NCBI GenBank assembly: GCA_964574655.1
Contig: CAZNOH010000004.1
Coordinates: forward strand, 2,046-66,045
DNA: 64,000 nt
Source of the DNA: an uncultured Candidatus Saccharibacteria bacterium
GTDB taxonomy: Bacteria > Patescibacteriota > JABMPQ01 > JAQVVF01
Reading direction: 5' to 3'
Shown here: positions 5,784 to 56,254 of the stretch, one piece after another
Position numbering within the stretch: position 1 is the first letter of the stretch
Layout of the letters: each line of letters begins with the position of its first letter
Position numbers and translations under genes: made by a program
Notes under the pieces: model-generated
What the model saw: the letters and a program-made list of their open reading frames with translations, nothing else
Database searches by the model: none
Told to the model about the DNA's origin: nothing

Positions 5784-6280
5784 AATAACTAAATAACTAA
5801 ATTATAAATAACAAAATTATTTTTTCTTTTCCCTGCCAAAATATATTGAACTCAATATTTTGATTATTTCCTGATATTCTTTTCCTAAATCGATGACTTC
5901 TTCTTTATTACCCAAATTAAGAGAATATAGCATTCTTAACCAACAATCAGTTTCACATGCTTCTTTTCTGGAAATGTTCAAGGAACTTTTGAAATCTTTA
6001 TAGGAATAACCACTACTTGCTTCTGTTAAATTCGCTACAACTGACATTGCTGATCTAATTATTTGCTTGCTGATTTCTTTTGCTTCAATTGAATAAGGAA
6101 TTTTCCTAGCCAATTTGATAACTCGAACTGCTGCTTTAAAACATCTCTGCCAAATATCTTTTTTCTTGTAATCTTTAGACCAAACCATAATCTTAATAAC
6201 TAAATGATAAATAACATAATGACAAAATACTTTAATTTATAATTCTTTTTGTTATTTATAATTTAGTAATTTAGTTATTT
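5784..6280. mobile_element. IVS-like cassette: four-helix-bundle gene flanked by 33-nt terminal inverted repeats (5784-5816 and 6247-6280, one mismatch) plus an extra direct partial copy at 6199-6231
   Basis: aataactaaataactaaattataaataacaaaa versus the reverse complement of ttttgttatttataatttagtaatttagttatt; inserted between ftsI and murF; related copy at 14706-14738. Confidence 0.55.
5817..6188 (-). CDS. Four-helix-bundle protein (23S rRNA intervening-sequence protein family, TIGR02436-like)
   Basis: 123 aa; RSAMSVVANLTEA...LNISRKEACETDCWLRM matches the family consensus; second paralog at 34515-34901. Confidence 0.7.
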   Translation of the reverse strand: MVWSKDYKKKDIWQRCFKAAVRVIKLARKIPYSIEAKEISKQIIRSAMSVVANLTEASSGYSYKDFKSSLNISRKEACETDCWLRMLYSLNLGNKEEVIDLGKEYQEIIKILSSIYFGREKKK

Positions 6281-8013
6281 CAATCGCTCGGTGCTATTTG
6301 ATAGTATTTTAATAATTCTTGAGCAATAGATTTGAATGCTGGACCGGTTACTGATTCGGCCCATACATCTCCACCAGGATTATTTAATTTTACTAAAATT
6401 ACAAAACGAGGATATTTAATCGGACCGAAACCGACAAATGTTGTAATTTTTTTATTTGGATCATAGCCCTTGCCGTCAGCGCTTGGAACTTGAGCAGTAC
6501 CTGTTTTTCCAGCTATTTTATAACCCTCAACTCTGGCTGGCTGTCCAAAACCTTTTTCCATAACTGAAACCATCATTGCTGATAGAGTTTCCGCTGTTTC
6601 TGGTTTAATAACTTGACGGACAGCTTTTGGTTTTGTTGTTTCTTCTGAACCATCTGGCCTGATAACTTTTTTAACGATATATGGTTTTAATAAACGACCG
6701 CCATTTGCAATGCAAGCGATTGCATTTGCAAGCCTCAATGGCGTTGTAGCAATGCCTTGACCAAAACTCATTGTAGCAAAATCCATTTCCGACCATTCGT
6801 TTGGTTTTTTAACTACTGTGCCTATTTCTGTATCTAAGTCTATTCCAGAATTTTCATCAAAGCCATAGTTGATCAAGTAATCGTACATTTTTTCTTTTCC
6901 CAATGTTCTAGCAATTTGAACCATGCCGATATTGTTTGATTTTTCCAAAATCTGCGTGATTGTCAAATCTCCATATGCTTTTTTGTCAAAGTTTTGGATA
7001 GTATACTCGCCTATTTCCATCTTACCGTTATCATTAAATTTTGTATCTGGCGAAATTAAATTGGAATCTAAAGCCATAGAAACTATTAACGGCTTAAAAG
7101 CTGAACCAGGCTCATATTGTTCATAGATATTTGAGTTGCTAAAATCATTAACATTTGCAACGTTAGAATAATCATTCGGATCATAATCTGGATAGCCAGC
7201 CATGGCAATTATCGCGCCAGTCTGCGGATCCATGACAATTGCTGAACCGCTTTCAGCGCCATTTTTTTCAACAGCATCTTTAACAACTGTCTCAACTTTA
7301 TCCTGAATTAAGCGGTCAATTGTTAAAACAATATCGCTGCCATCTTCTGCACCTTGAACTAAATTTTTTGTACCAGAAATAATTTCACCTAGAGTATTTT
7401 TTTCACTTTGTAAAAAACCATTTTTTCCGGAAAGCGTATTGTCATAATATCCTTCAACTCCGTATTGCCCCTTTTTCTGATCATTGACAAAGCCAACAAA
7501 ACCTAAGATATGAGATCCTAAACTCTTGTCTGGATAGTATCTCCAGTCTTCGGTTTGATAGCTAATGCCAGAAAGATTAAGATTTTTAATTTGCTCAATA
7601 GTCTCACTTTCAACTTTATGCTTTATAGGAACATAAAGCCTTTCCTCGTCAGAAATTAAACCAAGAATTTCGTCTTTTGGCATTGAAAGCAGAGGTGTAA
7701 GCAAAATACTGGTAGCATTTTTATCTTCAACCTGCTTTGGGACAGCAAACACCAAATTCATTTTTTTGTTGATAGCTAGAGGATATAATTTTTTGGAAAA
7801 TTTATCTTCAACATAAATCTCGCCTCTTTCAGGAACAAGATCCTCAAACAAGCTATGTTGACCTGAAGCTAATGCTTCGTAATAACCGTATTTAACTACT
7901 TGTAAATTGAATAATCTAAAAACAATTGCAATAACAACGATGACAACTAAAACAAATAGAAAATTTAGGCGATCAAATATTCGGCTTTTTTTTTGCTTTT
8001 TATATTTATCCAC
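6280..8013 (-). CDS. ftsI: Penicillin-binding protein / peptidoglycan D,D-transpeptidase FtsI
   Basis: N-terminal TM; SAFKP (SxxK), KSNN (SxN) and KTGT motifs; dcw context. Confidence 0.85.
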   Translation of the reverse strand: MDKYKKQKKSRIFDRLNFLFVLVVIVVIAIVFRLFNLQVVKYGYYEALASGQHSLFEDLVPERGEIYVEDKFSKKLYPLAINKKMNLVFAVPKQVEDKNATSILLTPLLSMPKDEILGLISDEERLYVPIKHKVESETIEQIKNLNLSGISYQTEDWRYYPDKSLGSHILGFVGFVNDQKKGQYGVEGYYDNTLSGKNGFLQSEKNTLGEIISGTKNLVQGAEDGSDIVLTIDRLIQDKVETVVKDAVEKNGAESGSAIVMDPQTGAIIAMAGYPDYDPNDYSNVANVNDFSNSNIYEQYEPGSAFKPLIVSMALDSNLISPDTKFNDNGKMEIGEYTIQNFDKKAYGDLTITQILEKSNNIGMVQIARTLGKEKMYDYLINYGFDENSGIDLDTEIGTVVKKPNEWSEMDFATMSFGQGIATTPLRLANAIACIANGGRLLKPYIVKKVIRPDGSEETTKPKAVRQVIKPETAETLSAMMVSVMEKGFGQPARVEGYKIAGKTGTAQVPSADGKGYDPNKKITTFVGFGPIKYPRFVILVKLNNPGGDVWAESVTGPAFKSIAQELLKYYQIAPSD

Positions 8014-20460: not shown

Positions 20461-21936
20461 TTATTTTAACTTCTTTAAAACTTTATCCTTACTAGGTTCT
20501 TTACCATGTTCAGTAATATATTCCAAAATGAATTTGTCTGCTTTTTCTAAATATTCTCCAATCTCTTTACCAGGTTTTAAATTAAAATTAGCCATAATAT
20601 CTTGCCCATCAATAACATGTCTAAATGTTTTGATTTCTGATTTTTTGAATTGTTCGCGCATATTATTAATATAATTGCGAACTTCTGTAATTCTTGCTAA
20701 ATTTTTTTCTTGAGTTGGACCATATGATGCTTTTGTATCAACATAATATAAATCTAAAAGTTCATCACCTAATTTCGGATCATCAATAAAATATTTTTTG
20801 ATAGTATTTGGACGCATATCTTCGACTTTTCCGGATACAAAAAACATGTGGTATTTTACCAGCCAGACTATTTCGCTAGTTAATTTGTTTGGCAATTTTA
20901 AACGGTTGCAGACTATGGAAGCTACTTTTGCTCCTTCTTCAGAATGTTCGTCTGATCTGACTCGGTCAACTCCATCTTTTTCTGGAGTTTTTGTTGTGCT
21001 TGGTTTACCAATGTCATGAAGTAAAGTTGCTAGCTTGAAGCGGACTGTTGTATTTTTTTGAATAAAACTTAAAGCCAGTTTTGTGTGTTCATAAACATCA
21101 CCTTCTTCATGAAATTCTTTTGGCTGGACAATTCCTTTGCATTCTTCAATTTCTGGCAATAAAATATTTAGTAATTTACATTGATCATAAAGATCTAGAA
21201 ATTTAACTGGATTTGCATCAAGTGATTTTAATAATTCTTTGGAAACTGTTTCAAATGGAACAGCATCTAAAATTTTTGGAGCATCATCTTTGATTGCCGT
21301 CCAAGTTTTTTCTTCAATTTTAAAATTAAATTTTAAGGAAAATCTGATAGCTCTTAAGATTCTAGAATAATCTTCTTGGAATCTTTTTGCAGGATTGCCG
21401 ACTGCTTTGATTATTTTATTCTCAATATCTCGTTGACCTAAATATGGATCAACTAAAGCGTCATTTTTAATATCATAAGCAATGGCGTTGATTGTTAAAT
21501 CACGTCTAGATAGATCAATTTCAATTGGCAATTCTGGATCTGATTGAACATCGAAATCGCGATATGCGCCAGTTCCTAAGGCCTCTTCTGTTCTAGGCAA
21601 GGCAATATCAAAAGCCTCCATTTTTTGGCCCATAAATTCTGGATCTTTTGGAACAAATTTAAAAACACCGAAAGATGCGCCAACTAATTCAACTGATCCA
21701 TATTTTCCTAAAAACTTTTTGAGATCATCTGCCTTAATCTTAGTAACAACAAAATCAAGATCTTTAGATTCTAAACCTAAAATTTGATCACGCACAAAAC
21801 CGCCGACTAAATATATTTTGGCGTCTTTAAAATCGTTAATTAATGCATCAAGAAATTCAAAAGTCTTGGCTTTTTTAGCATTAATGATATAATTCTTTAG
21901 GTTTTCTGTAGGATTATGATTCATGGAATTATGCAC
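20461..21936 (-). CDS. cca: CCA-adding tRNA nucleotidyltransferase with HD domain
   Basis: GGFVRD...DLDFVV Pol-beta NTase motifs; HDIGK HD motif. Confidence 0.75.
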   Translation of the reverse strand: MHNSMNHNPTENLKNYIINAKKAKTFEFLDALINDFKDAKIYLVGGFVRDQILGLESKDLDFVVTKIKADDLKKFLGKYGSVELVGASFGVFKFVPKDPEFMGQKMEAFDIALPRTEEALGTGAYRDFDVQSDPELPIEIDLSRRDLTINAIAYDIKNDALVDPYLGQRDIENKIIKAVGNPAKRFQEDYSRILRAIRFSLKFNFKIEEKTWTAIKDDAPKILDAVPFETVSKELLKSLDANPVKFLDLYDQCKLLNILLPEIEECKGIVQPKEFHEEGDVYEHTKLALSFIQKNTTVRFKLATLLHDIGKPSTTKTPEKDGVDRVRSDEHSEEGAKVASIVCNRLKLPNKLTSEIVWLVKYHMFFVSGKVEDMRPNTIKKYFIDDPKLGDELLDLYYVDTKASYGPTQEKNLARITEVRNYINNMREQFKKSEIKTFRHVIDGQDIMANFNLKPGKEIGEYLEKADKFILEYITEHGKEPSKDKVLKKLK

Positions 21937-22402: not shown

Positions 22403-23596
22403 TTAAGTCAACAGGATAAAGACCTTGTCATTTTTTCTAACTCGCTTATCAACTCTCAAAGCCACTAAGTCACTTTTTTTAGCTTTTGTAATTTTTTGAT
22501 GATTGTTTTCGAGTGAACTAATTTTTTGTTCAAAGAAACTTGTTTGTCCTTCAACTAAAATTTTATCGCCAATCTTTAATGAATGGTGTTTCAAATCAAT
22601 TTCCGCAACTTTTATATTAGCATAATAATTTGTTACATAGCCAACTAGAACTTTTTTAACTGCACTTGCATTGTCAGCTTTTTCATAACTAATTCCAGAT
22701 TTATCAGGCTTACTAAAATAAAAGCCAGTTGAATAGCCTCGATTATAAACAGTATCTAATTCAGCCTGCCATTTATTTACTTTTTCCTGACTAAATGTTT
22801 TATCAAAATAAGCATTAACTGCTTCTTTATAGCATCTTGAAGTTACTTCGATGTATCTTGGATCTCTGCGCCTACCTTCAATCTTAAATGAATCAATGCC
22901 AGCTTTGATTAATTCTGGAACATATTTGATCATGCATAAATCTTTTGCAGACATAAAATATTGGCCTTTGTTAACTATTTTTTTTCCTTCTGGATCTTGC
23001 AAAATCCATTCTTTACGGCAAGGTTGAGAACAAGTTCCGCAATTAGCTGATGTGCCATATAGATAGCTAGATAAAATACAACGGCCAGAAATTGCCAAAC
23101 ACATTGCGCCATGGACGAATGTTTCTATTTCTATCTTAACTTTTTTCTTTAATTTCTTGATATCCTGCAAAGACATTTCACGTGCTAAGACAATTCTTTT
23201 TGCGCCAAGTTTTTGATAAAATATTGCTGTTTTGTAATTGCTAATATTCGCTTGTGTGGAAATGAAGAAATTGACCTTAAACTTTTTAGCTAGCTCAACT
23301 AAGCTTAAATCCCAAATTATAATGGCATCAACGCCTACTTGTTTGGCTTTTTTTATCAATTTTTCGGCTTTTTTGAGGTCATTATTATAGATGGCGGAAT
23401 TGACCGTTAAGTAGCTTTTTAAGCCAAATCGATGGCATTTTTTAATAAATCTAGGCATATCCCTTAATTTAATGCCTGAATGAGCGCGCATGCTTAGATT
23501 ATCAGAAATGCCAAAATAGACTGCGTCAGCGTAATCTTTGCAGGCATCAAGTGAAGCAAAATCGCGAATTGGGCTCATTGTTTCTGGTTGTTTCAT
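22403..23596 (-). CDS. Peptidase U32 family protein (RlhA/TrhP-type RNA hydroxylation enzyme family)
   Basis: GAMCLAISGRCILSSYL...CGTCSQPCR signature. Confidence 0.75.
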   Translation of the reverse strand: MKQPETMSPIRDFASLDACKDYADAVYFGISDNLSMRAHSGIKLRDMPRFIKKCHRFGLKSYLTVNSAIYNNDLKKAEKLIKKAKQVGVDAIIIWDLSLVELAKKFKVNFFISTQANISNYKTAIFYQKLGAKRIVLAREMSLQDIKKLKKKVKIEIETFVHGAMCLAISGRCILSSYLYGTSANCGTCSQPCRKEWILQDPEGKKIVNKGQYFMSAKDLCMIKYVPELIKAGIDSFKIEGRRRDPRYIEVTSRCYKEAVNAYFDKTFSQEKVNKWQAELDTVYNRGYSTGFYFSKPDKSGISYEKADNASAVKKVLVGYVTNYYANIKVAEIDLKHHSLKIGDKILVEGQTSFFEQKISSLENNHQKITKAKKSDLVALRVDKRVRKNDKVFILLT

Positions 23597-27120: not shown

Positions 27121-27215
27121 GAAGGAACGGGAATAGATAGAAATGTGCGGGTAGGTCTGCGTCACGTTGCGTGAGCAGAAACTGAAGTTGTCTGAAGTGT
27201 TGTTGGAAGGTTTTA

Positions 27216-29069
27216 TCAGCCGCCGTTGCCCTTCAGCCGTGGCTTGGCGCTGATCTGCTCGACCGGCTGACCATTGAGCCAGGCGGCCGTCTCGTCCGGC
27301 GTGGCCTCGTTGCTCTGCCCGCTGCCACCCTCGTTGCCGTGGGTGCCGCGCGGGTTCCTCTTCTGGATCGCGCTGCGGACCTGCGGCCCGTCCGGGTTCT
27401 TGGCCATGTACTTCTCGATGCGCATCTTCAGCGTCATCGTCCACAGCTTCCCGATGGCCAAACTGCCGTCCCGCCAGCTGTCATGCTGGTCCTGGGACAT
27501 CTCGTACAGCTCCGCGGCTTGCTCGGGCGTGAGGCTCGAGTCGCTCTTCAGCTTCTCGACGATGAGCTGCTTGCGCAGCTCCATCGCCTGCCACGCCTCC
27601 CACGCCGTCAGCACCACCAGCCGAGGCACCCAGAACTTCCCGCCGCCCTCGGCCTTCTTCAGTCGCCCCTCCTTGTCCACGACCCGGACCGGCACGATCG
27701 CCGTCCGGAAGAGGGGCTTGTTTTCCCGCCCGTAGGTGGTGAGCTGCGTCCCCTCTTCGCTGTTGTTGGGGTTGTCGCTCTTCACCATCAGGCCAGGGTC
27801 GGCCCGGAACCTCTCCAGGTCACCCCAGGACCGAGAGATTTCGGCCGTATTCAGCTTGCCACCGATCAGCCGACGCAACCACTCGATCGTGGCCTCGTGT
27901 TCCTTGTGCTCCTCGCTCGGCGCGGTCTCGGGGGCCAGCTCGATGAGGTCGGCGAGGTCGTCCACGACGCCCTCGACGTACTCGGCCTTCTTGCCCGCCG
28001 CTTCCTTCGCCCGCTGCTCCATCTCGGCGATCTGCTGACGCTCCCACGTCTCGCGGTTGATCTCGTGGATGTTCTTGAGCAGCTGCCATGCTTCCGACCC
28101 GCGGTACTTCCGGCTCTTCTCCATCAGCTCGACACGGAGCGCATCCATGCACTCCTGCGAGAGCTTGCCGGCCAGGGTCTCCGCGTTGCGCTCGTCCTTG
28201 AACTCGGGGTGGTGCTCGGCCATGATCTTGTCCCACACCGCCCACGAGCCTTCGACCATCTCCTTCTCGCGCTTGCCGGCCCACCGAGCCCACTTAATGT
28301 AGCCGTCCTTGTAGGTGAAGCTCAGGGGCTCCCGCAACGCGGGGTTTTCCCGGTTCAGGAGCGGCCGTAGCAGCTTCATCCCCGTCTCGATCTTGCCCAG
28401 CACGGGCATGCAGATCGCCGGGGGCTGCTGGTCCTTGTTGAAGTACCCCGGCTTCAGCTTCTTCATGAGCTGGACGACGGTACCTCGCTTGTCGCCCTGG
28501 GACAGGTGGATCTCGCTCATCGCGATCACCACGATGCCGTTCGGGCTGAAGGCCTGGTTCTCACCGAGCTGATCCGACACCACGAGCACCTCTTCCGGGT
28601 GGAAGAAGCACCCGACGGCCTTCGGGTAGTCCGGCTCGCTCGCCTTGTGGTAGTCCTCGTTGTCCTTCTCGCGCTGCTGCCGGTTGCGCTCCCGCGCGGC
28701 CTTCCGCCGTTGCTGCCGGGCGCGCCTCATGTCCTGCTTCTCCTGCCGGGTGAGCGGGCGCCCGACCTTGGCCTCCTCGGCCGCCTCCTCGGCTTGGGTC
28801 TCCTGCTCGTCCTCGTCGTCCCCGTCCTCGACCACGACGCCGTCCTCCACCACGGGGGCGGGGGGCTCGGCGACGGGCTGCTCGGTCACGATCTCGGTCT
28901 GCTCGGTCTTCTTGACGCGGGGCTTGCGCACCCGCTTCGGCTTCTCGACCTTCTCGGGCTCAACCTGGGCCTCCTCGGCCTGGGTCTCGCCATCCTTCAC
29001 CTCCTTCTTCTGCTCGGTGTTGTTGACGGTGATCTGGGAATCGGTCTTGGGTCCGCGCTTCGTACTCAT
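27216..29069 (-). CDS. Hypothetical 617-aa protein, about 65% GC: N-terminal ~140-aa charged disordered region (KPKRVRKPRVKK) then a large alpha-rich globular region; no recognised family
   Basis: Single long ORF with strong codon periodicity; RBS aGGAGGgtagaagag-ATG; own promoter-like TTGACA...TATAAA and own terminator; the plus-strand ORFs over it are high-GC artefacts. Confidence 0.6.
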   Translation of the reverse strand: MSTKRGPKTDSQITVNNTEQKKEVKDGETQAEEAQVEPEKVEKPKRVRKPRVKKTEQTEIVTEQPVAEPPAPVVEDGVVVEDGDDEDEQETQAEEAAEEAKVGRPLTRQEKQDMRRARQQRRKAARERNRQQREKDNEDYHKASEPDYPKAVGCFFHPEEVLVVSDQLGENQAFSPNGIVVIAMSEIHLSQGDKRGTVVQLMKKLKPGYFNKDQQPPAICMPVLGKIETGMKLLRPLLNRENPALREPLSFTYKDGYIKWARWAGKREKEMVEGSWAVWDKIMAEHHPEFKDERNAETLAGKLSQECMDALRVELMEKSRKYRGSEAWQLLKNIHEINRETWERQQIAEMEQRAKEAAGKKAEYVEGVVDDLADLIELAPETAPSEEHKEHEATIEWLRRLIGGKLNTAEISRSWGDLERFRADPGLMVKSDNPNNSEEGTQLTTYGRENKPLFRTAIVPVRVVDKEGRLKKAEGGGKFWVPRLVVLTAWEAWQAMELRKQLIVEKLKSDSSLTPEQAAELYEMSQDQHDSWRDGSLAIGKLWTMTLKMRIEKYMAKNPDGPQVRSAIQKRNPRGTHGNEGGSGQSNEATPDETAAWLNGQPVEQISAKPRLKGNGG

Positions 29070-29275
29070 CTCTTCTACCCTCCTAGGAGTCTTGGAACCA
29101 GAAACTGAAAACGCGCGCGCTCTAAACGCAGCATTGCACTGCGAAAAGCCATGTCCTGGAATAGTGGGAATAATCTGAATAATAATAATTTTTTATAACC
29201 TTCCAAATTGTCAGTGTTCTAGAATTACTATCAATATCTTGGCTCAAAATATTTTGAGACAAACTGCTGACAGCT

Positions 29276-34458: not shown

Positions 34459-34951
34459 AAGTAAAAATTAAAAAGTAAAAAGGTAAAAGTTACAAGTCAA
34501 AAGTCAAAAAACTATTAATAATATTTTTTGGCTTTTGCTTTTAAAATTATTGAAGCTAAAATATTTGTAATTTCGTTTAATTCTTCCAATAAACTTTTTA
34601 CTTCGCTTAAAATATTTTGATTTTTTGTAAGATCAGAATCCCTCAACAATCCTAACCAAAATTTTGATTCATTGCCAGACCTTAAAGCAATGCCATAATA
34701 CTTAATAAATTCTTTCTTAGATGAAGACGCCTGAACCTCAATGATATTTGCACCAATGCTACTTCCTGACCTGAGCAATTGTTTCAAAATAACTTCCGTT
34801 GATAAATTTCTAGGAAATTTGTTAGAAAGTTTAATTATCCTAATAGCAAAAAAATAAACTCTTTTCTTAATATCATAAATTTTCCCTTCTTCGTTCGTCA
34901 TTTTTTTACTTTTTTACTTGTGGCTTTTTACTTTTTCCTTTTGACTTTTAC
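34459..34951. mobile_element. IVS-like cassette: second four-helix-bundle gene flanked by gtaaaag/gtcaaaag-vocabulary inverted arms (34459-34510 and 34902-34951) between pyrH and tsf
   Basis: Arms share k-mers in inverted order; a homologous gene-free arm lies at 42165-42215. Confidence 0.5.
34515..34901 (-). CDS. Four-helix-bundle protein (TIGR02436-like), paralog of 5817-6188
   Basis: RLLRSGSSIGANIIEVQASSSKKEFIKYYGIALRSGNESKFWLGLL. Confidence 0.7.
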   Translation of the reverse strand: MTNEEGKIYDIKKRVYFFAIRIIKLSNKFPRNLSTEVILKQLLRSGSSIGANIIEVQASSSKKEFIKYYGIALRSGNESKFWLGLLRDSDLTKNQNILSEVKSLLEELNEITNILASIILKAKAKKYY

Positions 34952-35670: not shown

Positions 35671-35913
35671 AAATATCTCGTAATTTATATTGTTGACAAA
35701 TTAATAATTATATAATATAATATTTAGTGCTCTTTTTAAATTCAGCTATTGTTTTGATCATGAGTTATCCCTATTATCCGCGTGTAATCCGTTAAAATCC
35801 GTTTTTCAAAAACGCGGGTGCAGACTGATTGCACACGGATAAAACGGATAACTTGCAACTTCAGAGTAGCAGAACTAAAACGCAAAGTCAAAGGCAAAAC
35901 GAGGAGGAAGAGA

Positions 35914-37419
35914 ATGGCTGAGCCAGTAGATCTTGATCTTGATGATCTGCTCGAATTGCTTGTTTCTACAGATCCAATGCCAAAGTCTGGTTCTTGTGCA
36001 AAAGCTTCCACTTGTTTGGAAAAAAAAGATTTTGCTGGTGCTTTGTCTCATTGTGAGCAAGCTCTTGAAGAAGATCCTTGCAATGGATTGGCAATGAATC
36101 TCCAAATTCATGTCCTGTTCGAATCTGATCAAAAAGATTTGGCAATGGCAAAGCTTGGATATTTGCTGAAATTCTTTCCAAATCTTCAAAGCGCAAATCT
36201 TACTGAACTTGTAGCATTGTTTTCTGATCGAGATGACGAGATTGGTTATCTCACGTTTCAAGTAAAAGCTTGCTTGGAACAAAGGAGATTTGAAGATGCA
36301 ACTAATTATTGCAATGATGCTCTATTGATAAATCCTCTGTCTTGCCAAGCACTTTGCTTGCAAGTGCAGATTCAACTTTCCATGAAGGAATTTGACAAAG
36401 CTGAATATGGCCTGCGCCATTTACTGAAATATTATGGCCAAAACAAGCAAGTAGGTTTTCTAGCAAGAAACTATATTGAAGCAATGATTGCTGAAGACAA
36501 GTTTGCTGATGCATTGATCTTCTTTGTCCAGTTCAGAGAGGATCGCTCTCTGGCTTTGAGCTATGTTGGAACAGCTTGTTCAAGGTATGCAGAATACGAA
36601 CGTAAGGCTGTCAAAGAGCTTGAAGACCGCAACGAACAAAGATTAAAGCTGGCTGAAGCAGAAATAGTTTTCAGAGAAGCAATCGCATATTTGCAAGACT
36701 TGCCAATCTTTTTGATTCAGGCCTTTGAGGGCTTGCTCTATGTGTATCTGGAATGGTCTAAGAAATTCAAGGATGACAAGATCGTTGAGATGCTGGCACT
36801 CCTGAATCAAGCAGAAAGTCTGCAAGTCAGAGTGCCGCCAAGAATCTATGCTGCTTTTGTCTTTTACTATGCACGTAAGCCGTCCTTTTTTTGCCAAGCA
36901 ACAGAGTACTTGGCGAGATGCAGATTGGCTGACGCAACTGATGAAAAAGCTGTACAGGCAACTCGCGCATACTTGGGACATTTGAAAGAGCATCGCCGAA
37001 CTGCAGCTAACGTAACAGATCGCGAAATGAAAATAACAAGACTGCAACAACTGGCATTAGTCTGCAAAGATGCTTTGAAGTTATTTAATGATAGAGAAAT
37101 TCTGGCAGCGATTTCAGTGAATCTGCTCTTCATCTTTCTCTTGATCTCCAAAATGGTTGCCAAATCACGATTATCAGATATGCTAGAAACACTGCAATCT
37201 TTGGAGATGGTGGTTGATGAAGAAAACCGTACGCCAGAAATGTATCTGCCTTTTGTCTATTATTTCACGCAAGTGAGAAAAGACAAAAATCAGGCAGATT
37301 ATTTCATGGCTCGTTGCGAACAACATATTTGTTCAAATGAAAAAGAGTACCTTGAACCAGCATACGTGGCTTATCAAGTCGCATTTGGAACGTCCTTTGG
37401 GATTGATCAGTCTTCATGA
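35914..37419 (+). CDS. Hypothetical alpha-helical TPR-like protein (~502 aa; foreign cassette)
   Basis: GC about 42%; RBS aacGAGGAGGaagaga-ATG at 35914 (the ORF track extends upstream without a start); hairpin plus T-run after the stop. Confidence 0.55.
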   Translation: MAEPVDLDLDDLLELLVSTDPMPKSGSCAKASTCLEKKDFAGALSHCEQALEEDPCNGLAMNLQIHVLFESDQKDLAMAKLGYLLKFFPNLQSANLTELVALFSDRDDEIGYLTFQVKACLEQRRFEDATNYCNDALLINPLSCQALCLQVQIQLSMKEFDKAEYGLRHLLKYYGQNKQVGFLARNYIEAMIAEDKFADALIFFVQFREDRSLALSYVGTACSRYAEYERKAVKELEDRNEQRLKLAEAEIVFREAIAYLQDLPIFLIQAFEGLLYVYLEWSKKFKDDKIVEMLALLNQAESLQVRVPPRIYAAFVFYYARKPSFFCQATEYLARCRLADATDEKAVQATRAYLGHLKEHRRTAANVTDREMKITRLQQLALVCKDALKLFNDREILAAISVNLLFIFLLISKMVAKSRLSDMLETLQSLEMVVDEENRTPEMYLPFVYYFTQVRKDKNQADYFMARCEQHICSNEKEYLEPAYVAYQVAFGTSFGIDQSS

Positions 37420-37615
37420 GAGGCTGATTTTTTTTGCTTACGAATCGCACAAATGCCTTACGACCGCGAATCTCGCTAATACACTTTTTGGCTTATTCTT
37501 CCCATTTCCCACGTCCTATTTCCCATTTCACAAATGGCATTGACAAAAATAAGGTGCTGTGATATGATGAAAGGCTCTAAATTCGGAGCGTACTCTCACA
37601 GCGTGGAGGTATGAG

Positions 37616-38206
37616 ATGTCTCGCCAGGTTCCGGTGGATCAGTTCGAAGGGCTGGGGCTCCTGCCCCTGATCATCCTCGTAAAGGTGGCCGGAATCGGTC
37701 CCTGGATTGAGGCTCTGCTGCCCGAACGGCAGTACAACGCAGACGCGGTTGCCGCAAGGCGCCGCAAGGAGGCGGAGGAACTCGGAATCTCGTTCGGGAT
37801 CCGACGTGACGGGATGGATGACACAGGTTGCAACGTGATCTGCAACCGGCAATTCGTGTGGATCGACGCTCTTCTGGCGGGATTCGCCATGGAGAGATAC
37901 AAGATCACGGAAGCGAGCTGGTTCTGGCGCGAGGATGAGCGAGGACGGAAGCGCTTCCTCCAGCTCGCCTTCACCATGACCGGCGATGCTATTTCTCTAC
38001 CGAAACGTGTTTCACGGATGTTCGCCGTGGGCGTGGTTCCTTTCGTGAACGTCTGGGCAAACGTTCGCGAGAGTGGTGAAGAGCTGTTTCGGCTCGACAC
38101 CATCAATGTCCCTAGCCCCCGCATGAACGTGGTGGCCGAGGAGGAGTTGCACTGCAGCTTCTCTCCCGGTCGATACACCTACCTCACCACCGCTCCCCAC
38201 CGCTAG
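37616..38206 (+). CDS. Hypothetical 196-aa protein (GC about 58%; foreign cassette)
   Basis: RBS gtGGAGGtatgag-ATG; followed by the terminator at 38249-38278. Confidence 0.55.
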   Translation: MSRQVPVDQFEGLGLLPLIILVKVAGIGPWIEALLPERQYNADAVAARRRKEAEELGISFGIRRDGMDDTGCNVICNRQFVWIDALLAGFAMERYKITEASWFWREDERGRKRFLQLAFTMTGDAISLPKRVSRMFAVGVVPFVNVWANVRESGEELFRLDTINVPSPRMNVVAEEELHCSFSPGRYTYLTTAPHR

Positions 38207-38248
38207 GCCCCCCCCACACACACCCGCACCTTTCTACCCGCCCTTTGA

Positions 38249-38278
38249 AACCGATTGCATTCTGCAGTCGGTTTTTTC
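38249..38278 (+). terminator. Rho-independent terminator
   Basis: aaccgattgca-ttc-tgcagtcggtt with G-U, then T6. Confidence 0.65.
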
Positions 38279-38346
38279 TTGGGAAAAATTTTGAAAATAA
38301 AAATGCCCGACCTGTAAGATTGGACAAAATTTAATTATTTAAAAAC

Positions 38347-39759
38347 TTATTTTTTAACTGGTGTTAAAACTGTAAACAAATAATCTTTAAATTTTGTTTT
38401 TATATTCTCTATTGTTCCAAGTTCTAATACTTTCAAAGAATCAATTTCTTTTTGCGAAACCCATGATGGAAGTGGCAGGCCTTGGCACAATGTAAAAATA
38501 TGAGATAAAAACGTTGTAGCGTAGGCGCCTTTGTGCAGATCAAAAGAAATTGCTACTCCCTCTTCTAAACAGCAAAATGAATTGATTGTTGGAATTAATT
38601 TTGATGGCACTTCAGAATGCTTTAGCCAGATGAATGGAAATGGCTTTAAATTTTTGACAAAATAATTTGTTTTATCAAAAGTTAATAAATCATTATAGAA
38701 ATTTTGATCAGAACTATTAGTGCTTAAAAACAAAGGAAATTTTTGTGGCAAGCTAATATTATTTCTAACAAACTGAGACATTTTTTTGTTGAATAAATAG
38801 CTCCCATAGGCATAGACCCATAATCTTACTTGATCTTTAATAGTAGTTAAAGCTTGAATGTATTCATCTTTATTCTTGCTTAGATATTTTAAAACCTTGA
38901 TTTCATTCTGGAAAGTATGTGGAAGCTGTTCATAAATTTTTAAAATTTTGTCCCACTGGCCGTAAATTAATTTTGCTTGATCACGGAATTCTTGAACAAG
39001 CGGAATTTCATTTTTGCCTTGAGCAACTAATAAAGCCTTAACAGCCAATTCATATTCTCCACGGCAAACTATAATGCCAAGCTTGTGAGCAATCCCCCTG
39101 CTTCCTCCAAATCTTTGACTGCCGAAAAAATTATAGAAACCGCTAGTTTTAATTTTTTTTATTTTTTCATACAGAGAATTTGGGTTGTACAAATTTTGTG
39201 TTCGGATAAAAATAGTAAATCTATTTCCTTGTAAATTGCCTGGCTGTAATGCACCCTTGCCCAAGACAATGTTTTTCAAAATTATACCAGGTATTTTTAA
39301 TTCTTTGATTTTGCTCAAAGCCACTTGTCGAAAGCTTAATCTTTGAGAAGTAACGGCAATAGCATCTTTTAGTCCAGCATGTCCGATTTGTTTTTGTTCA
39401 ATTCCTAATGATTTTGCAATTCGCTCAATTGCGACCAATGTTGAAACTCCAACTTTGATCATGTCAGCATAGACTGTCTCGCCTTCTTGATCAATTAAGT
39501 TTTTGTCATTTTCTGGATCAATTGTGGTAATTCTGCCATCTTGAGTAATCTCTTCAACGATAAAATCAACTGGTGAAAAACGCAAAAAACCCAAAGACAA
39601 GTCAGAAATAATTTCAATACCAAAGTCTTGGAGTAATTTTTGATCTTCGGTGATTGGATTTTGCCTTTCTAACTTTTTTGGGTTTTCTTTTCTAGCTTTT
39701 TCAAGAAAATCACATTCCTTCAACCAAGCATCGTACGATGTTTGATTTTGATTTTCCAT
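38347..39759 (-). CDS. truD: tRNA pseudouridine(13) synthase TruD
   Basis: FSPVDFIVEEI and GFYNFFGSQRFGG TruD motifs. Confidence 0.7.
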   Translation of the reverse strand: MENQNQTSYDAWLKECDFLEKARKENPKKLERQNPITEDQKLLQDFGIEIISDLSLGFLRFSPVDFIVEEITQDGRITTIDPENDKNLIDQEGETVYADMIKVGVSTLVAIERIAKSLGIEQKQIGHAGLKDAIAVTSQRLSFRQVALSKIKELKIPGIILKNIVLGKGALQPGNLQGNRFTIFIRTQNLYNPNSLYEKIKKIKTSGFYNFFGSQRFGGSRGIAHKLGIIVCRGEYELAVKALLVAQGKNEIPLVQEFRDQAKLIYGQWDKILKIYEQLPHTFQNEIKVLKYLSKNKDEYIQALTTIKDQVRLWVYAYGSYLFNKKMSQFVRNNISLPQKFPLFLSTNSSDQNFYNDLLTFDKTNYFVKNLKPFPFIWLKHSEVPSKLIPTINSFCCLEEGVAISFDLHKGAYATTFLSHIFTLCQGLPLPSWVSQKEIDSLKVLELGTIENIKTKFKDYLFTVLTPVKK

Positions 39760-40928: not shown

Positions 40929-41375
40929 TTATTGAACTGCTCGAACTCCAATGGAAATTTTTTGCTTTGACGGAGCAGATGTGCTCTGATTTTCTATAAA
41001 GATTTTGGCAACTATCCAATCGTTTCTTCGGCTGTATGAAGTCCAGAGGTAGGTTGTTGCATCTTCCTTGTCATGCCTATAAATTTGTTTATCTTGATCT
41101 GGAAATTCAATGCTGATTGCATAATTTTCTGGTGCTTTGACAACGAATGTATACCAGCGCTTGAAGAATACAATAGGAATAGCCAAACAGGCTGGAATCT
41201 TTTGGTTATCAATTTCAACCAAAATATATGGCGACTGGACATTGACATATGGCTCAACAACTTGACAGCCTGTCTTTTTCAAATACTGCTTGACTACTTC
41301 TGGAACTACTACTTTTTGAGCGAAAGCTTCGGTTGCTAAAAGGAACACACACAAAGCAATCAGTCTGATAAGCAT
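40929..41375 (-). CDS. Secreted hypothetical protein with signal peptide (foreign cassette)
   Basis: MLIRLIALCVFLLATEAFA; RBS agaGGAGGagagag-ATG; GC about 42%. Confidence 0.5.
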   Translation of the reverse strand: MLIRLIALCVFLLATEAFAQKVVVPEVVKQYLKKTGCQVVEPYVNVQSPYILVEIDNQKIPACLAIPIVFFKRWYTFVVKAPENYAISIEFPDQDKQIYRHDKEDATTYLWTSYSRRNDWIVAKIFIENQSTSAPSKQKISIGVRAVQ

Positions 41376-41444: not shown

Positions 41445-42161
41445 CTAATCCTTTTTCGCAATCGTAATCAGATTATAACCGTTCCTCCAATTTGATCTTT
41501 CACCTTTCTTAACATAATACTGCTCTTCAACTTTGAAGCCTGTACTTTGTAATAAACTTGCTAATTCTTTCTTAGTAAAAGCATGATAATAGCGATCAAC
41601 AACTCCAAAGCGAGCTTTCCAAGGCATGTAAACGTCCTTCAAATCTAATTCTCGATGCTTGCCAGCAACACTTGAAAAAGAATATTTTAATGTCTGCCAG
41701 AAATATTTTGCTTGAAAGAGATTCCAGTTGGTCATTAATAAATAGCTATTTGGCTTCAAAATATGATGAAAATCTCTTAGAACTTGCAAACGCAATTCTT
41801 TAGATGGAATGTGCTGATATGCAGCAACGCAGAAAATTATGTCAAAAGTTTCTGTTTCAAAATGTAAATCCAACAACTCCATTTGTCTAAAATTTCCAAA
41901 TTGATATTTAGTTTTAGCTTCATTAATCAAAGCATAGCTATTATCAACGCCAAGATATTTAATATTTTTATTCTTCAACAATTGATAAAGACGGCCATTG
42001 CCACATCCTGCATCAAGGATGTTTTGATTGGGCTTTACAAATTTCATTAAATCTTCTAATTCTTGCCACGAAAAAGCACGAGTTGCAGAGAATTCTTTGG
42101 CTAAAGATTTGTAATCTTGCTTTGTTTTATCGATTAATTTTTGGGCATATTCTTTTTGCAT
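41445..42161 (-). CDS. Class I SAM-dependent methyltransferase (Trm9/ALKBH8-MTase-like)
   Basis: ILDAGCGNGRLY motif I; ~238 aa; divergently paired with the Elp3-like gene. Confidence 0.65.
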   Translation of the reverse strand: MQKEYAQKLIDKTKQDYKSLAKEFSATRAFSWQELEDLMKFVKPNQNILDAGCGNGRLYQLLKNKNIKYLGVDNSYALINEAKTKYQFGNFRQMELLDLHFETETFDIIFCVAAYQHIPSKELRLQVLRDFHHILKPNSYLLMTNWNLFQAKYFWQTLKYSFSSVAGKHRELDLKDVYMPWKARFGVVDRYYHAFTKKELASLLQSTGFKVEEQYYVKKGERSNWRNGYNLITIAKKD

Positions 42162-42261
42162 AAAGGTAAAAGTAAAAAATAAAAAGGAAAAAGTTACAAT
42201 TCAAAAGTAAAAAAAACTGACGTTGACAAGAATGGCTTAATGTTATATTCTTGGTAGAACT

Positions 42262-43872
42262 ATGAAACCAACAGAAGAATTAATAATTAAAACTTTAAAA
42301 AAAAAATCTTTTTTAAGATCCAAATTTGAATTGGAAAAAAGAAAAATTTCTAAAAAATATAAATGCGAGTTACCTACTAATATTTTAATATTATCAGTTT
42401 ATCGCGATTTAATCAAAAAGAAAAAAAATAAGCCTAACAAAAATTTTGAAGAATTATTAAAAAAACAAAAAACTAGAACATTATCTGGCATTGCTTCAAT
42501 TGCAATTTTTACAAAACCATACAAATGTCCTGGCAAATGTTTGTATTGTCCAAGTCAACCGAAAATGCCAAAAAGCTATTTGAATGATGAGCCAGCAGTA
42601 ATGCGGGCAATTCTTTGTAACTATTCGCCTAAAAAACAGATTGAAACAAGATTAGAAGCTTTGAATATCTGCGGACACAAGACTGACAAAATTGAATTAA
42701 TTATTATGGGTGGATCATGGAGCGCATTTCCGAAGTCTTATCAAAACAATTTTGTTTGGCGATGCTTTAAGACGGCAAATGAATTTAATCATGGAGTTAA
42801 AAGTTATAAGTTAAAAGTTAAAAGTAACTTAACGACTGAACAAAAACGCAATGAAAAAGCGAAACATAGAATTATTGGAATGACTCTTGAGACAAGACCA
42901 GATTTGATTGATGAAAAAGAAGTAATCAGAATGCGAAAACTTGGCGCAACAAGAGTTGAGCTTGGTGTACAAAGTGTCTATGATGATGTTCTAAAATTCA
43001 ATAATCGCGGACATCTTGTTGCTAGAACAATTTTGGCGACTAAACTTTTGAAAGACGCTGGATTTAAAATCAACTATCATATGATGCCGAATTTGCCAAA
43101 AAGTAATAAAGAAAAAGATCTGCAAATGTTCGAAGAATTATTTTCTAATTCTTCTTTTCAGCCAGACATGTTAAAAATATATCCTTGCGTTTTAACTAAG
43201 AATTCTAAATTATTTAAAGTTTGGAAGGCCGGAAACTATAAACCTTACAATGACAAAGAAATTGTTGATTTGTTAATTAAGATTAAACAGAATATTCCTA
43301 AATATGTAAGGATAATGAGATTAGGTCGCGATATACCAGCAAATGATATTGTTGCTGGAAATAAAATGTCTAATATTAGACAAGTTGTTCATGCAAAGAT
43401 GATTGAACAAAATTTGATTTGTAAGTGCATAAGATGCAGAGAAATAAAGAACGAAATATTGAATATTAAATATTTAATATTAAGAAGACATGATTATTTT
43501 GCGTCTGGAGGCAAAGAAATATTTTTAAGTTTTGAAGATATCAAATTAAACAAAATTTTGGCTTATTTGAGACTCAGGATCCCTTCTCAATATTTTAGTC
43601 ATGAAAAACATTTCGTTAAAGTTTTAAATAATTGTGCTATAATAAGAGAATTGAAAAGTTTAGGTCAGATGGTGGAGATTAATCAGAAAAATAAAAAAGC
43701 ATCTCAGCATAAAGGCTTGGGTAAAAAGTTGATGCGAGAAGCAGAAAAAATTATAATAAAAGAATTTAAGCTAGATAAAATTGCTGTAATTTCCGGAGTT
43801 GGAGTGAGAGGTTATTATAAAAAGCAAGGATATAAATTCAAAGATAGCTACATGATTAAAAATATAAAATAA
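42262..43872 (+). CDS. elp3: Elp3-family radical-SAM/GNAT protein (tRNA U34 carboxymethyluridine synthase homolog)
   Basis: CPGKCLYCP radical-SAM cluster; C-terminal GNAT QHKGLGKKLM; N-terminal basic region. Confidence 0.65.
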   Translation: MKPTEELIIKTLKKKSFLRSKFELEKRKISKKYKCELPTNILILSVYRDLIKKKKNKPNKNFEELLKKQKTRTLSGIASIAIFTKPYKCPGKCLYCPSQPKMPKSYLNDEPAVMRAILCNYSPKKQIETRLEALNICGHKTDKIELIIMGGSWSAFPKSYQNNFVWRCFKTANEFNHGVKSYKLKVKSNLTTEQKRNEKAKHRIIGMTLETRPDLIDEKEVIRMRKLGATRVELGVQSVYDDVLKFNNRGHLVARTILATKLLKDAGFKINYHMMPNLPKSNKEKDLQMFEELFSNSSFQPDMLKIYPCVLTKNSKLFKVWKAGNYKPYNDKEIVDLLIKIKQNIPKYVRIMRLGRDIPANDIVAGNKMSNIRQVVHAKMIEQNLICKCIRCREIKNEILNIKYLILRRHDYFASGGKEIFLSFEDIKLNKILAYLRLRIPSQYFSHEKHFVKVLNNCAIIRELKSLGQMVEINQKNKKASQHKGLGKKLMREAEKIIIKEFKLDKIAVISGVGVRGYYKKQGYKFKDSYMIKNIK

Positions 43873-43920: not shown

Positions 43921-45021
43921 ATGACGACATGCGAACGGCATCCTGAATCAAGACAAACTTTTTGTTTTTTCTGCGGAGAATATGGATGCTCGAAATGTAT
44001 GGCAAGAATTGGAAAGCACAACATCTGTGGAAAATGTGCAAAACAACTCCATGAAGCAATTACTCCGCATCAATTGGCAATCTTTTCCGGTCGGTCCAAT
44101 GAGCCTTTGGCACAAAGAGTTTGTTCTATTCTAGGTATTCCTTTGGGACAAATGCGTTTTAAGGATTTTGAAGGCTCAGAAATGCGTCCACAATTTTTGG
44201 AGAATATCAGAGGTAAGAGAGTATTTATTTTGCAACCAACTGTTGCCGGCGAAGATGCAATTGGTGCAAAAATGCGTGAAGAACTTTTATTAATGGTTCG
44301 AGCTGCAAAACAGGCTTCTGCCCAAGAAGTTTGCGTTGTAATTCCAGATTTTGCATATCAACGACAAGAGCGAAAAACACAAGCAAGAATTGCAATTTCC
44401 GCTCGACTAATGGTTGATCTTCTTGAAACTGCCGGTGCTGATAGATTTGTTTTCCTCGATCTTCATGCTGGGGCAATACAAGGCTTTACTTCTAAGCCTG
44501 CTGACCATCTCTGGGCTACTCCGCTACTGTTGAAAGAAGCTTTAGCCGATCATGTTGCTCCTGGACAAACAGTTTTTCTGACTGATGCAGGTTATGCCAA
44601 AGTTGTCAGTGCGTATGCAAGAAAATTTGGAGTTGATTTTGCAGTTGCCCATAAAGAAGGAAGAGACAAAAAAGATGATCAAATTGATAGCATCAGAATT
44701 GTTGGCGATGTACGTGGAAAAATAGTAGTAATCATTGATGATATCGTTAAATCAGCAAAAACGATGATTGAAATGGCAAAGGCTTGCTTGAGAGATGGAG
44801 CAATAAAAGTTGTTGGCGCAGGAATTCATGGAGAATTGACAGAAGGTGCGGCTGAAAGAATTGAACTTTCTTGTTTGGAATTTTTGGCTATTACTGATAC
44901 TGTTCATATTTCTGACAAAAAACGCAATAAGAAAATTGTGATAGTGTCTACAGATAAGCTAATTGCTCAAGCAATCAAAGCAATTTACGAGTATGGATCA
45001 GTTTCTGAACTTTTTGACTAG
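43921..45021 (+). CDS. Ribose-phosphate pyrophosphokinase (Prs)-like protein with N-terminal Cys-rich zinc ribbon (foreign cassette)
   Basis: HPESRQTFCFFCGEYGCSKCMARIGKHNICGKC; Prs core FLDLHAGAIQGF; divergent PRPP loop IIDDIVKSAKTM; RBS caGGAGGgaaag-ATG. Confidence 0.6.
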   Translation: MTTCERHPESRQTFCFFCGEYGCSKCMARIGKHNICGKCAKQLHEAITPHQLAIFSGRSNEPLAQRVCSILGIPLGQMRFKDFEGSEMRPQFLENIRGKRVFILQPTVAGEDAIGAKMREELLLMVRAAKQASAQEVCVVIPDFAYQRQERKTQARIAISARLMVDLLETAGADRFVFLDLHAGAIQGFTSKPADHLWATPLLLKEALADHVAPGQTVFLTDAGYAKVVSAYARKFGVDFAVAHKEGRDKKDDQIDSIRIVGDVRGKIVVIIDDIVKSAKTMIEMAKACLRDGAIKVVGAGIHGELTEGAAERIELSCLEFLAITDTVHISDKKRNKKIVIVSTDKLIAQAIKAIYEYGSVSELFD

Positions 45022-55707: not shown

Positions 55708-56254
55708 GACGCAGAATTACGCAGAAGCTAACGCAGAAGACGCAGAACTTTTGCATCTTGCTGTGTCATAAACTCTACGAATTATTTCTGCTCCTTTAGG
55801 ATAACCAAAATTGACTAGAAATCCTAATTTATATTGTGAATTCTTAAGGTAATGCCAAAATTGTTCGATGTCTTGTTTGAACAAATTTGGTTTTGCTTTG
55901 AGTTCAATTAGAATTTTATCATTAATAATTAAATCTGGTATATAAATTCCAATTTTCTTGTTTAAATAATAAATACTTATTCTCTTTTGTTTATCAACTT
56001 TAAAACCTTGCTGTAGCAATCCGAAATAAAATGCTTCCTGATAAACTTTTTCTTTATGTCCGCTACCTAAAGTTTTATAAATCTCAAAGATAATTCCTCT
56101 GATTTTATATGATTCTTGTTTATATAAAAAGTCTGCCATTTCCCTCCTAAAATAACTTACTTATTTTTTATCTGCATTGTCTGCGTCAACTTCTGCATTA
56201 TTCCGCGATTTGTTTTCTGCTTTTTCTGCGTTCGCTTCTGCGTCATTCTGCGTT
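55708..56254. mobile_element. IVS-like cassette inside the atp operon: GxxExxY gene flanked by cgcagaa repeats (55708-55748) and inverted tctgcg repeats (56170-56254)
   Basis: Same repeat family as the gene-free palindrome at 35581-35670; located between atpA and atpG. Confidence 0.55.
55717..56139 (-). CDS. GxxExxY-family protein (PD-(D/E)XK-like, rRNA-IVS-associated family, TIGR04256-like)
   Basis: SYKIRGIIFEIYKTLGSGHKEKVYQEAF...ILIELKA...KLGFLVNFG; the last ~12 codons run into the flanking repeat and may be an ORF-caller artefact. Confidence 0.65.
   Translation of the reverse strand: MADFLYKQESYKIRGIIFEIYKTLGSGHKEKVYQEAFYFGLLQQGFKVDKQKRISIYYLNKKIGIYIPDLIINDKILIELKAKPNLFKQDIEQFWHYLKNSQYKLGFLVNFGYPKGAEIIRRVYDTARCKSSASSALASA

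Follow-up and report, generated by a model that had tools for sequence, protein, structure and literature searches.

The Elongator/Trm9 pathway of wobble uridine modification has mainly been studied in eukaryotes, in which it has links to neurodegeneration and cancer, and a few archaea were shown to possess it as well. Here, we analyze a 64-kb window (the whole stretch of DNA that was examined, ~32% G+C, whose positions serve as coordinates throughout) of contig CAZNOH010000004.1 from an uncultured Candidatus Saccharibacteria bacterium, in which a gene for the tRNA-modifying enzyme Elp3 and a gene for a Trm9-like S-adenosylmethionine (SAM)-dependent methyltransferase lie head-to-head. The two proteins probably form a self-contained divergent module (we put the probability at about 0.78), which would make first 5-carboxymethyluridine (cm5U) and then 5-methoxycarbonylmethyluridine (mcm5U) at the wobble uridine, U34, of tRNA.

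Among the systems described so far, Elp3 and Trm9 genes cluster in Sulfolobus solfataricus (Grosjean et al. 2008, PMC2584109), and this archaeal cluster is like the present pair in that a stand-alone Elp3, without Elp1, 2, 4, 5, and 6, is linked to a Trm9 homolog (PMC2584109). Orthologs of Trm9 in archaea were reported solely in Sulfolobales and Halobacteriales (PMC5372719), and in H. volcanii both mcm5U and a Trm9-Trm112 complex were found (PMC6144793; for mcm5U also PMC7663514). Bacteria that employ MnmE/MnmG, followed by MnmC or MnmM, modify the same C5 of U34 for the same decoding purpose (PMC7663514), but these enzymes are unrelated to Elp3 and Trm9, and use a GTPase/FAD mechanism with glycine or ammonium instead of radical-SAM chemistry with acetyl-CoA. 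Bacterial Elp3 has been described as rare or confined to Dehalococcoides, and its products, derivatives of 5-carboxymethyluridine (xcm5U), as being without evidence (PMC6367351, PMC7663514), whereas newer literature places Elp3 in “numerous bacteria” (PMC13315578). A bacterial Trm9 or an Elp3-Trm9 pair was not described in the open-access literature that was searched, which likewise held nothing relevant on Elp3 in the candidate phyla radiation (CPR)/Patescibacteria, Trm9 in Chloroflexi or MnmG in CPR. We regard the pair not as a new kind of system, but as a bacterial, widely conserved member of a known pathway that is possibly independent of Trm112: the eukaryotic/archaeal pathway and the clustering in Sulfolobus were known, while its extent in bacteria and the possibly Trm112-independent Trm9 are new.

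Layout of the Gene Pair

The locus consists of two genes and the spacer between them:

42262..43872, + strand: Elp3 gene (536 amino acids, aa), predicted radical-SAM/GNAT tRNA U34 carboxymethyl (cm5U) synthase, by matches to TIGR01211, Pfam Radical_SAM and Radical_SAM_C, and the PDB
41445..42161, - strand: gene for the Trm9-like SAM-dependent methyltransferase (238 aa), predicted tRNA (carboxymethyluridine34-5-O)-methyltransferase, by PDB matches, a fungal profile, an AlphaFold2 (AF2) model, and adjacency to Elp3
42162..42261, no strand: 100-bp A+T-rich intergenic spacer between the divergent genes, presumed shared promoter region

Both open reading frames (ORFs) exist at exactly these coordinates, head-to-head and 100 bp apart, as had been proposed in an earlier note made from the letters of the window alone, and the motifs quoted there are present in the translations, namely CPGKCLYC (CxxxCxxC) and the GNAT motif QHKGLG in Elp3 and LDAGCGNG in the methyltransferase. 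That note had called the Elp3 “divergent,” which is correct for the direction of transcription but not for the sequence, as the protein is canonical. Neither ORF is a chance reading frame, since Elp3 matches TIGR01211 over its full length with 580 bits and the methyltransferase passes five Pfam models, all of them for generic class I methyltransferases. The surroundings are bacterial, with genes for S2, L31, RF1, and PrmC near the pair, and the nearest relatives of both proteins are found in Patescibacteria/CPR metagenome-assembled genomes. The only U34 tRNA encoded within the window is tRNA-Thr(UGU).

The spacer contains a sigma-70-like site (TTGACA-17-TATTCT, 42223-42251, +). Because promoter-like sites were no more common in this region than in shuffled sequences (14 vs. 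11.7), the shared promoter region is putative, and a scan of the locus for terminators likewise gave nothing above shuffled expectation.

The Elp3 Protein

The 536-aa protein is a full-length canonical Elp3, scoring 580.4 bits against the curated model TIGR01211 (cutoff 350) across positions 12-522 of the 522 in the model. Among the Pfam models, Radical_SAM and Radical_SAM_C match it, and those for GNAT give weak matches below cutoff, as they do for most of the listed homologs. Its best PDB matches are the Elp3 proteins of Methanocaldococcus infernus (MinElp3; 6IAZ, 430 bits) and Dehalococcoides mccartyi (DmcElp3; 5L7J, 368 bits), for both of which biochemical and structural work exists. The exact protein is already in NCBI and has at least 7,980 relatives, many of which were named Elp3 by the Prokaryotic Genome Annotation Pipeline (PGAP). 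Its functional regions are arranged as follows:

42262..42462, + strand: basic N-terminal extension, aa 1-67, with 21 K/R among 67 residues; aligns with the N-terminus of MinElp3, upstream of residue 1 of DmcElp3
42526..42549, + strand: radical-SAM [4Fe-4S] motif CPGKCLYC (C89/C93/C96), aligned with the cluster cysteines of DmcElp3 and MinElp3
43420..43437, + strand: three-Cys Zn motif CKCIRC, aa 387-392, aligned with CRCIRC of DmcElp3 and MinElp3
43705..43722, + strand: GNAT acetyl-CoA motif QHKGLG, aa 482-487, by translation and alignment

The radical-SAM plus GNAT architecture that the earlier note had recognized is thus borne out by the TIGR01211 score and by the conservation of all Fe-S, Zn, and acetyl-CoA residues, which the window protein shares, together with its domain architecture, with MinElp3 (6IA8/6IAZ/6IAD) and DmcElp3 (5L7J). 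In the acetyl-CoA pocket, K143, K269, E463, and Y518 correspond to K77, K193, E386, and Y441 of DmcElp3, which were named as key acetyl-CoA residues, and the three-Cys Zn site in the inter-domain linker is a feature of prokaryote-type Elp3 (PMC6367351). A basic N-terminal tail is found in archaeal and eukaryotic Elp3, where it provides most of the tRNA affinity and activity, but not in DmcElp3, the only structurally studied bacterial Elp3 (PMC6367351). Since the window protein carries such a tail, as does MinElp3, it looks more like the more active archaeal type than the weakly active Dehalococcoides type, as far as the alignment goes.

Elp3 was historically annotated as a histone acetyltransferase, as is still seen in PDB entry names, and the window protein could accordingly be a protein (lysine) acetyltransferase or have another radical-SAM role away from tRNA, with the methyltransferase serving that process. 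However, the residues of the tRNA reaction and the tRNA-binding tail are all present, and we give this explanation next to no credence.

The Methyltransferase Is Trm9-Like

The assignment of the 238-aa methyltransferase as Trm9-like is supported by reciprocal profile searches, conserved residues and contrasts to control enzymes. A single-sequence search of 177,635 PDB sequences returned Yarrowia Trm9 as the top match over nearly the full length (5CM2_Z, i.e., chain Z of the Trm9-Trm112 complex; E = 1.2e-10). The same chain came first, with 94 bits (E = 8e-26) vs. 77 bits for the runner-up, when the PDB was searched with family profile A2, which was built from 21 bacterial members and includes no Trm9 sequence. 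The profile of another alignment, A1, gave 183 bits for Trm9, but this result was discarded as circular because A1 contains a Trm9 sequence. For the reverse search, a profile of 109 fungal Trm9 proteins was run against the 3,703 ORFs of the window and of 80 related loci; it matched a single window ORF, the methyltransferase (73.9 bits, E = 2e-21), left the other class I methyltransferases of the window (e.g., PrmC) unmatched, and picked out one ORF each in 79 of the 80 loci from other genomes.

Three regions of the protein carry most of the Trm9-type residues:

42066..42113, - strand: Trm9-type N-terminal substrate motif YKSLAKEFSATRAFSW (Y17, F24, R28, W32), which aligns with the fungal Trm9 consensus vYeqiashFsstRykpW
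41994..42017, - strand: SAM-binding motif I LDAGCGNG, aa 49-56 (D50 corresponds to D72 of yeast Trm9, ScTrm9), by alignment and translation
41583..41594, - strand: Trm9-specific RYYH block (R190 and Y192 correspond to ScTrm9 R241 and Y243), by PDB and profile alignments and translation

The activity of yeast Trm9 requires R29, D72, H116, W145, W168, R241, Y243, and N271; R29 and H116 were proposed to hold the cm5U carboxylate, W145 to stack on U34 and N271 to read the uracil, and the substitution D72A abolishes SAM binding (Létoquart et al., PMC4678810). At the first seven of these positions, the window protein has R28, D50, H117, W146, W181, R190, and Y192, and its N-terminal motif reads Y17..F24-S-x-T-R28...W32, with Y17 at the position of ScTrm9 Y18. 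Across 77 bacterial and archaeal loci, six essential positions (R, D, H, W, W/F, R) are near-invariant, with R28 unvaried throughout the family. The two solved methyltransferases that rank next after Trm9, 3SM3 and 1VE3, served as controls; the Arg, the two Trp, and the RYYH block are missing from both, and the His is also missing from 3SM3. In its AF2 model, the protein is predicted with a mean local confidence (pLDDT) of 92.6 and a predicted TM-score (pTM) of 0.90, and in a Foldseek comparison with the PDB, 5CM2_Z lies in the top tie, with the highest target-normalized TM-score (0.83) and the highest identity (24%).

The window enzyme agrees in size and in its class I SAM methyltransferase fold with the methyltransferase domain of eukaryotic Trm9/ALKBH8 (5CM2). 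Common to both are the N-terminal Y..FS.TR...W, motif I, the RYYH block, the catalytic His, and the two Trp, and the window enzyme has an Asn near the C-terminus that may be the counterpart of the one in Trm9. The window enzyme differs in its bacterial host, in the lack of Trm112 in the neighborhood, in having Gln at the non-essential H115 position, and in an extra helix between W146 and D176 and a longer N-terminal helix; identity is ~24-28%.

A generic small-molecule methyltransferase of the UbiE/UbiG/BioC type, whose adjacency to Elp3 would be meaningless, has to be weighed against the Trm9-like assignment, as the Pfam matches are generic and the weak NCBIfam matches are to DVU_1556, CpaM, BioC, and UbiE/UbiG. 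In public records, the relatives mostly go by the name of class I SAM-dependent methyltransferase or by that of quinone methylase, and several Joint Genome Institute (JGI) records read “benzoquinol methylase,” while a few JGI records use TRM9 or ALKBH8. The NCBIfam matches, however, reach only 40-60 bits vs. cutoffs of 100-216 (BioC 42 vs. 185, UbiE 40 vs. 216, UbiG 39 vs. 103), the Trm9-specific residues are conserved here and missing from the control methyltransferases, and the fungal-Trm9 profile selects this ORF uniquely. Clustering with unrelated small-molecule methyltransferases, which the earlier note had named as the outcome that would speak against its Trm9/ALKBH8-type assignment, did not occur, as Trm9 is the top PDB match for both the single sequence and the family profile; that assignment therefore stands, with the essential residues retained.

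Conservation of the Pair

For the comparison across genomes, the 80 loci had been fetched from named genomes via the family alignment, and Elp3 was located in them by tblastn; two non-family loci and six with too little upstream flank were left out, which leaves 72 informative loci. Elp3 immediately adjoins the methyltransferase gene in 58 of these, lying upstream on the opposite strand (head-to-head) in 56 and co-directionally in two, with a median gap of ~180 bp, and is found 2-6 kb away in another four. The carriers comprise many CPR lineages, Anaerolineales and other Chloroflexota, Fermentibacteria, a Myxococcales-labeled metagenome-assembled genome and one crenarchaeon. In all three loci that were picked from the Elp3 side, blind to the methyltransferase, the same divergent methyltransferase (207-229 aa) adjoins Elp3. 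The pairing, whose absence from other genomes would have spoken against the earlier note, is thus conserved. That note had also called the pathway uncommon, which holds for bacteria as a whole but not for CPR and Chloroflexota, where the pair is common.

The conserved unit consists of exactly Elp3 and the methyltransferase, as within 4 kb no other ORF family recurs in more than eight of ~52 loci, and no third conserved gene (Trm112, a thiolation enzyme or a Kti12-like protein) was found there. Such a two-gene linkage is the pattern expected of consecutive steps in one pathway. Adjacency to Elp3 across phyla, with otherwise variable neighbors, also speaks against a small-molecule methyltransferase, a reading that we regard as largely refuted and to which we assign very little probability.

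The crenarchaeal locus contains the same two genes side by side, but with Elp3 downstream of the methyltransferase in the same direction, in contrast to the head-to-head order that prevails in the bacterial pairs. The closest relative of the window pair (JAQVVF010000016.1, about 6181-6913; locus L001) encodes a methyltransferase with 92% and an Elp3 with 84% identity to those of the window; the aligned parts of its genes lie ~730 bp apart by tblastn vs. the 100-bp spacer in the window, which suggests an insertion or a different start site.

Proposed Pathway

Elp3 would bind a U34-containing tRNA, aided by its basic N-terminal tail, and cleave SAM at the [4Fe-4S] cluster to generate a 5'-deoxyadenosyl radical. 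This radical would take a hydrogen from the acetyl group of acetyl-CoA bound in the GNAT domain, and the resulting radical would couple to C5 of U34, yielding cm5U34. This radical-SAM/acetyl-CoA reaction is the one known from archaeal Elp3 and from Elongator. With a further SAM, the Trm9-like enzyme would then place a methyl ester on the cm5 carboxylate to give mcm5U34; by analogy to yeast Trm9, R28 and H117 may position the carboxylate, W146 may stack on the uracil and N230 or N224 may read the pyrimidine. We infer the Elp3 step (U34 to cm5U34) from strong homology, and the methyltransferase step from homology, active-site conservation and gene linkage.

Several points weigh against this pathway. 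To our knowledge, neither mcm5U nor cm5U was measured in any CPR or Chloroflexota tRNA, and mcm5U in no bacterium. Direct evidence for xcm5U derivatives in Elp3-bearing bacteria was lacking, according to a 2020 review (PMC7663514). No curated NCBIfam model reaches its cutoff for METHYLTRANSFERASE (the 238-aa protein), and the lead of Trm9 over the second PDB match in the family-profile search is just 17 bits. The Foldseek E-values tie 5CM2_Z with other class I methyltransferases, including 3SM3 and 3L8D, and the fold of the model is hence counted as consistent with Trm9 but non-discriminating. The counterpart of ScTrm9 N271 is ambiguous, as it could be N224 or N230, with an Asn present under either alignment: the fungal-Trm9 profile pairs N224-W225 with the N-W of Trm9, and N230 is the near-invariant Asn of the bacterial family, directly before the last strand. 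At 10 of the 72 informative loci, no Elp3 is present within the flank. In the family at large, V, I, C, or A can stand at the position equivalent to Y243, and, with regard to Trm112, no PF03966 (Trm112) was detected among the 14 small ORFs of the 64-kb window that were scanned against Pfam, nor was a conserved small Trm112-like neighbor seen beside the pair in the ~52 loci.

The variation at the Y243-equivalent position in many members, together with the replacement of W181 by F in some and the identity of just 24-28% to Trm9, would fit a Trm9-derived methyltransferase of shifted specificity, which acts on another Elp3-dependent intermediate, nucleotide or tRNA position, so that the product is not mcm5U. 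How the steps that involve cm5U and 5-carbamoylmethyluridine (ncm5U) follow one another is itself unsettled in yeast, to judge by the title of PMC3110198. Yet the residues predicted to contact carboxylate and uracil (R28, H117, W146, R190) are near-invariant, the window protein keeps the essential set, and the tight linkage to a cm5U-making Elp3 points to cm5U as the substrate; a shifted specificity is thus improbable, although it deserves more weight than the small-molecule or acetyltransferase readings.

The synthesis of mcm5U from cm5U could also proceed with the same chemistry but with a methyltransferase that depends on a zinc-knuckle activator of the Trm112 type, whose gene would lie at another place in the genome. 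Trm112 is obligatory for yeast Trm9, and is the partner of Trm9 in H. volcanii, where the archaeal enzyme was shown to bind it; bacterial Trm112 orthologs exist, with roles unassigned (PMC6144793, PMC4678810). As the window covers just 64 kb, the absence of Trm112 from it says little about the genome. On the other hand, no small conserved ORF accompanies the pair in the ~52 loci, where gene order is otherwise variable, and AF2 predicts, with confidence, a compact monomer in which one extra helix is found at the N-terminus (residues 3-26) and another is inserted further on (residues 154-165). We consider dependence on Trm112 unlikely, while taking it as the alternative that merits most attention. 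Since no Trm112 gene accompanies the pair at the loci examined, the methyltransferase may, speculatively, work alone or use a distally encoded partner, and the odds that the bacterial Trm9-like enzyme is autonomous are roughly even.

Other Features of the Window

Directly downstream of the methyltransferase lies a 148-aa ORF with a signal-peptide-like N-terminus (40929-41375, -), which has no family match and does not recur as a neighbor of the pair in the other genomes. Two genes from the methyltransferase, a TruD-type tRNA pseudouridine(13) synthase is encoded (38347-39759, -; Pfam 216 bits; TIGR00094 168 bits, just below the cutoff of 172). TruD does not belong to the conserved pair and is absent at the corresponding position in relatives. 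Next to it lies a block of odd composition (35818-38330), in which a 533-aa ORF (weak TPR matches, 41% G+C) is followed by a 196-aa ORF (60% G+C, no family). Because tsf directly adjoins rpsB in two syntenic relatives (L081 and L082), this block and TruD look like an insertion relative to them. On the other side of the pair, between Elp3 and L31, a gene for a ribose-phosphate pyrophosphokinase (PRPP synthase; 43921-45021, +, 40% G+C) is located, whose product has a Cys-rich N-terminal extension of ~50 aa (CERH...CFFCGEYGCSKC...CGKC) outside every family model; at this position, L081 and L082 carry different small genes or no gene at all.

Beside the gene for the CCA-adding enzyme (20461-21936, -), a peptidase-U32 family protein is encoded (22403-23596, -). 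Among curated models, it best matches that of TrhP, a prephenate-dependent tRNA U34 hydroxylase, with 216 bits, far under the equivalog cutoff of 534, and it may be a second wobble-uridine enzyme, of the 5-hydroxyuridine (ho5U) type, or an rRNA hydroxylation enzyme.

A sharply bounded island of 59-67% G+C (27200-29200), within the genome of ~32% G+C, is filled by an ORF of 617 aa (27216-29069, -) whose N-terminus is charged and of low complexity and whose body looks globular. This ORF belongs to no Pfam or NCBIfam family, and tblastn against phage and plasmid collections gave no match; the island may be of foreign origin or a chimera of the assembly. According to Rfam, the GC-rich stretches are not rRNA. 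Three small ORFs amid housekeeping genes (5817-6188, 34515-34901, and 55717-56139, all -) are, judging by eye from their sequences, presumably similar to two families that typify CPR genomes, that of the four-helix-bundle/23S rRNA intervening-sequence proteins and GxxExxY.

Implications

Elp3 is abundant in CPR bacteria and stands there mostly head-to-head with a Trm9-like gene, with no Trm112 alongside. The public annotation of the latter as a generic or quinone methyltransferase would amount to a systematic misannotation, which is corrected here. We tentatively suggest, while leaning somewhat against a claim of this breadth, that in CPR and many Chloroflexota an archaeal/eukaryotic-type Elp3 and a Trm112-independent Trm9 form the main, and perhaps the only, pathway to 5-methyl-substituted wobble uridines (xm5U34), and that mcm5U, or its 2-thio derivative mcm5s2U, is standard there. 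If so, mcm5U, which has so far counted as eukaryotic and archaeal, would be common to a large part of the bacterial domain, and the head-to-head pair would represent a minimal complete Elongator pathway. With two small, presumably soluble proteins that should be expressible in E. coli, which lacks the pathway, the pair would offer a cheap system for a minimal reconstitution of the conversion of cm5U to mcm5U and for addressing independence from Trm112. If a “eukaryotic” tRNA modification occurs, as predicted, in this major radiation of bacteria, it would bear on how A- and G-ending codons are decoded in reduced, A+T-rich genomes.

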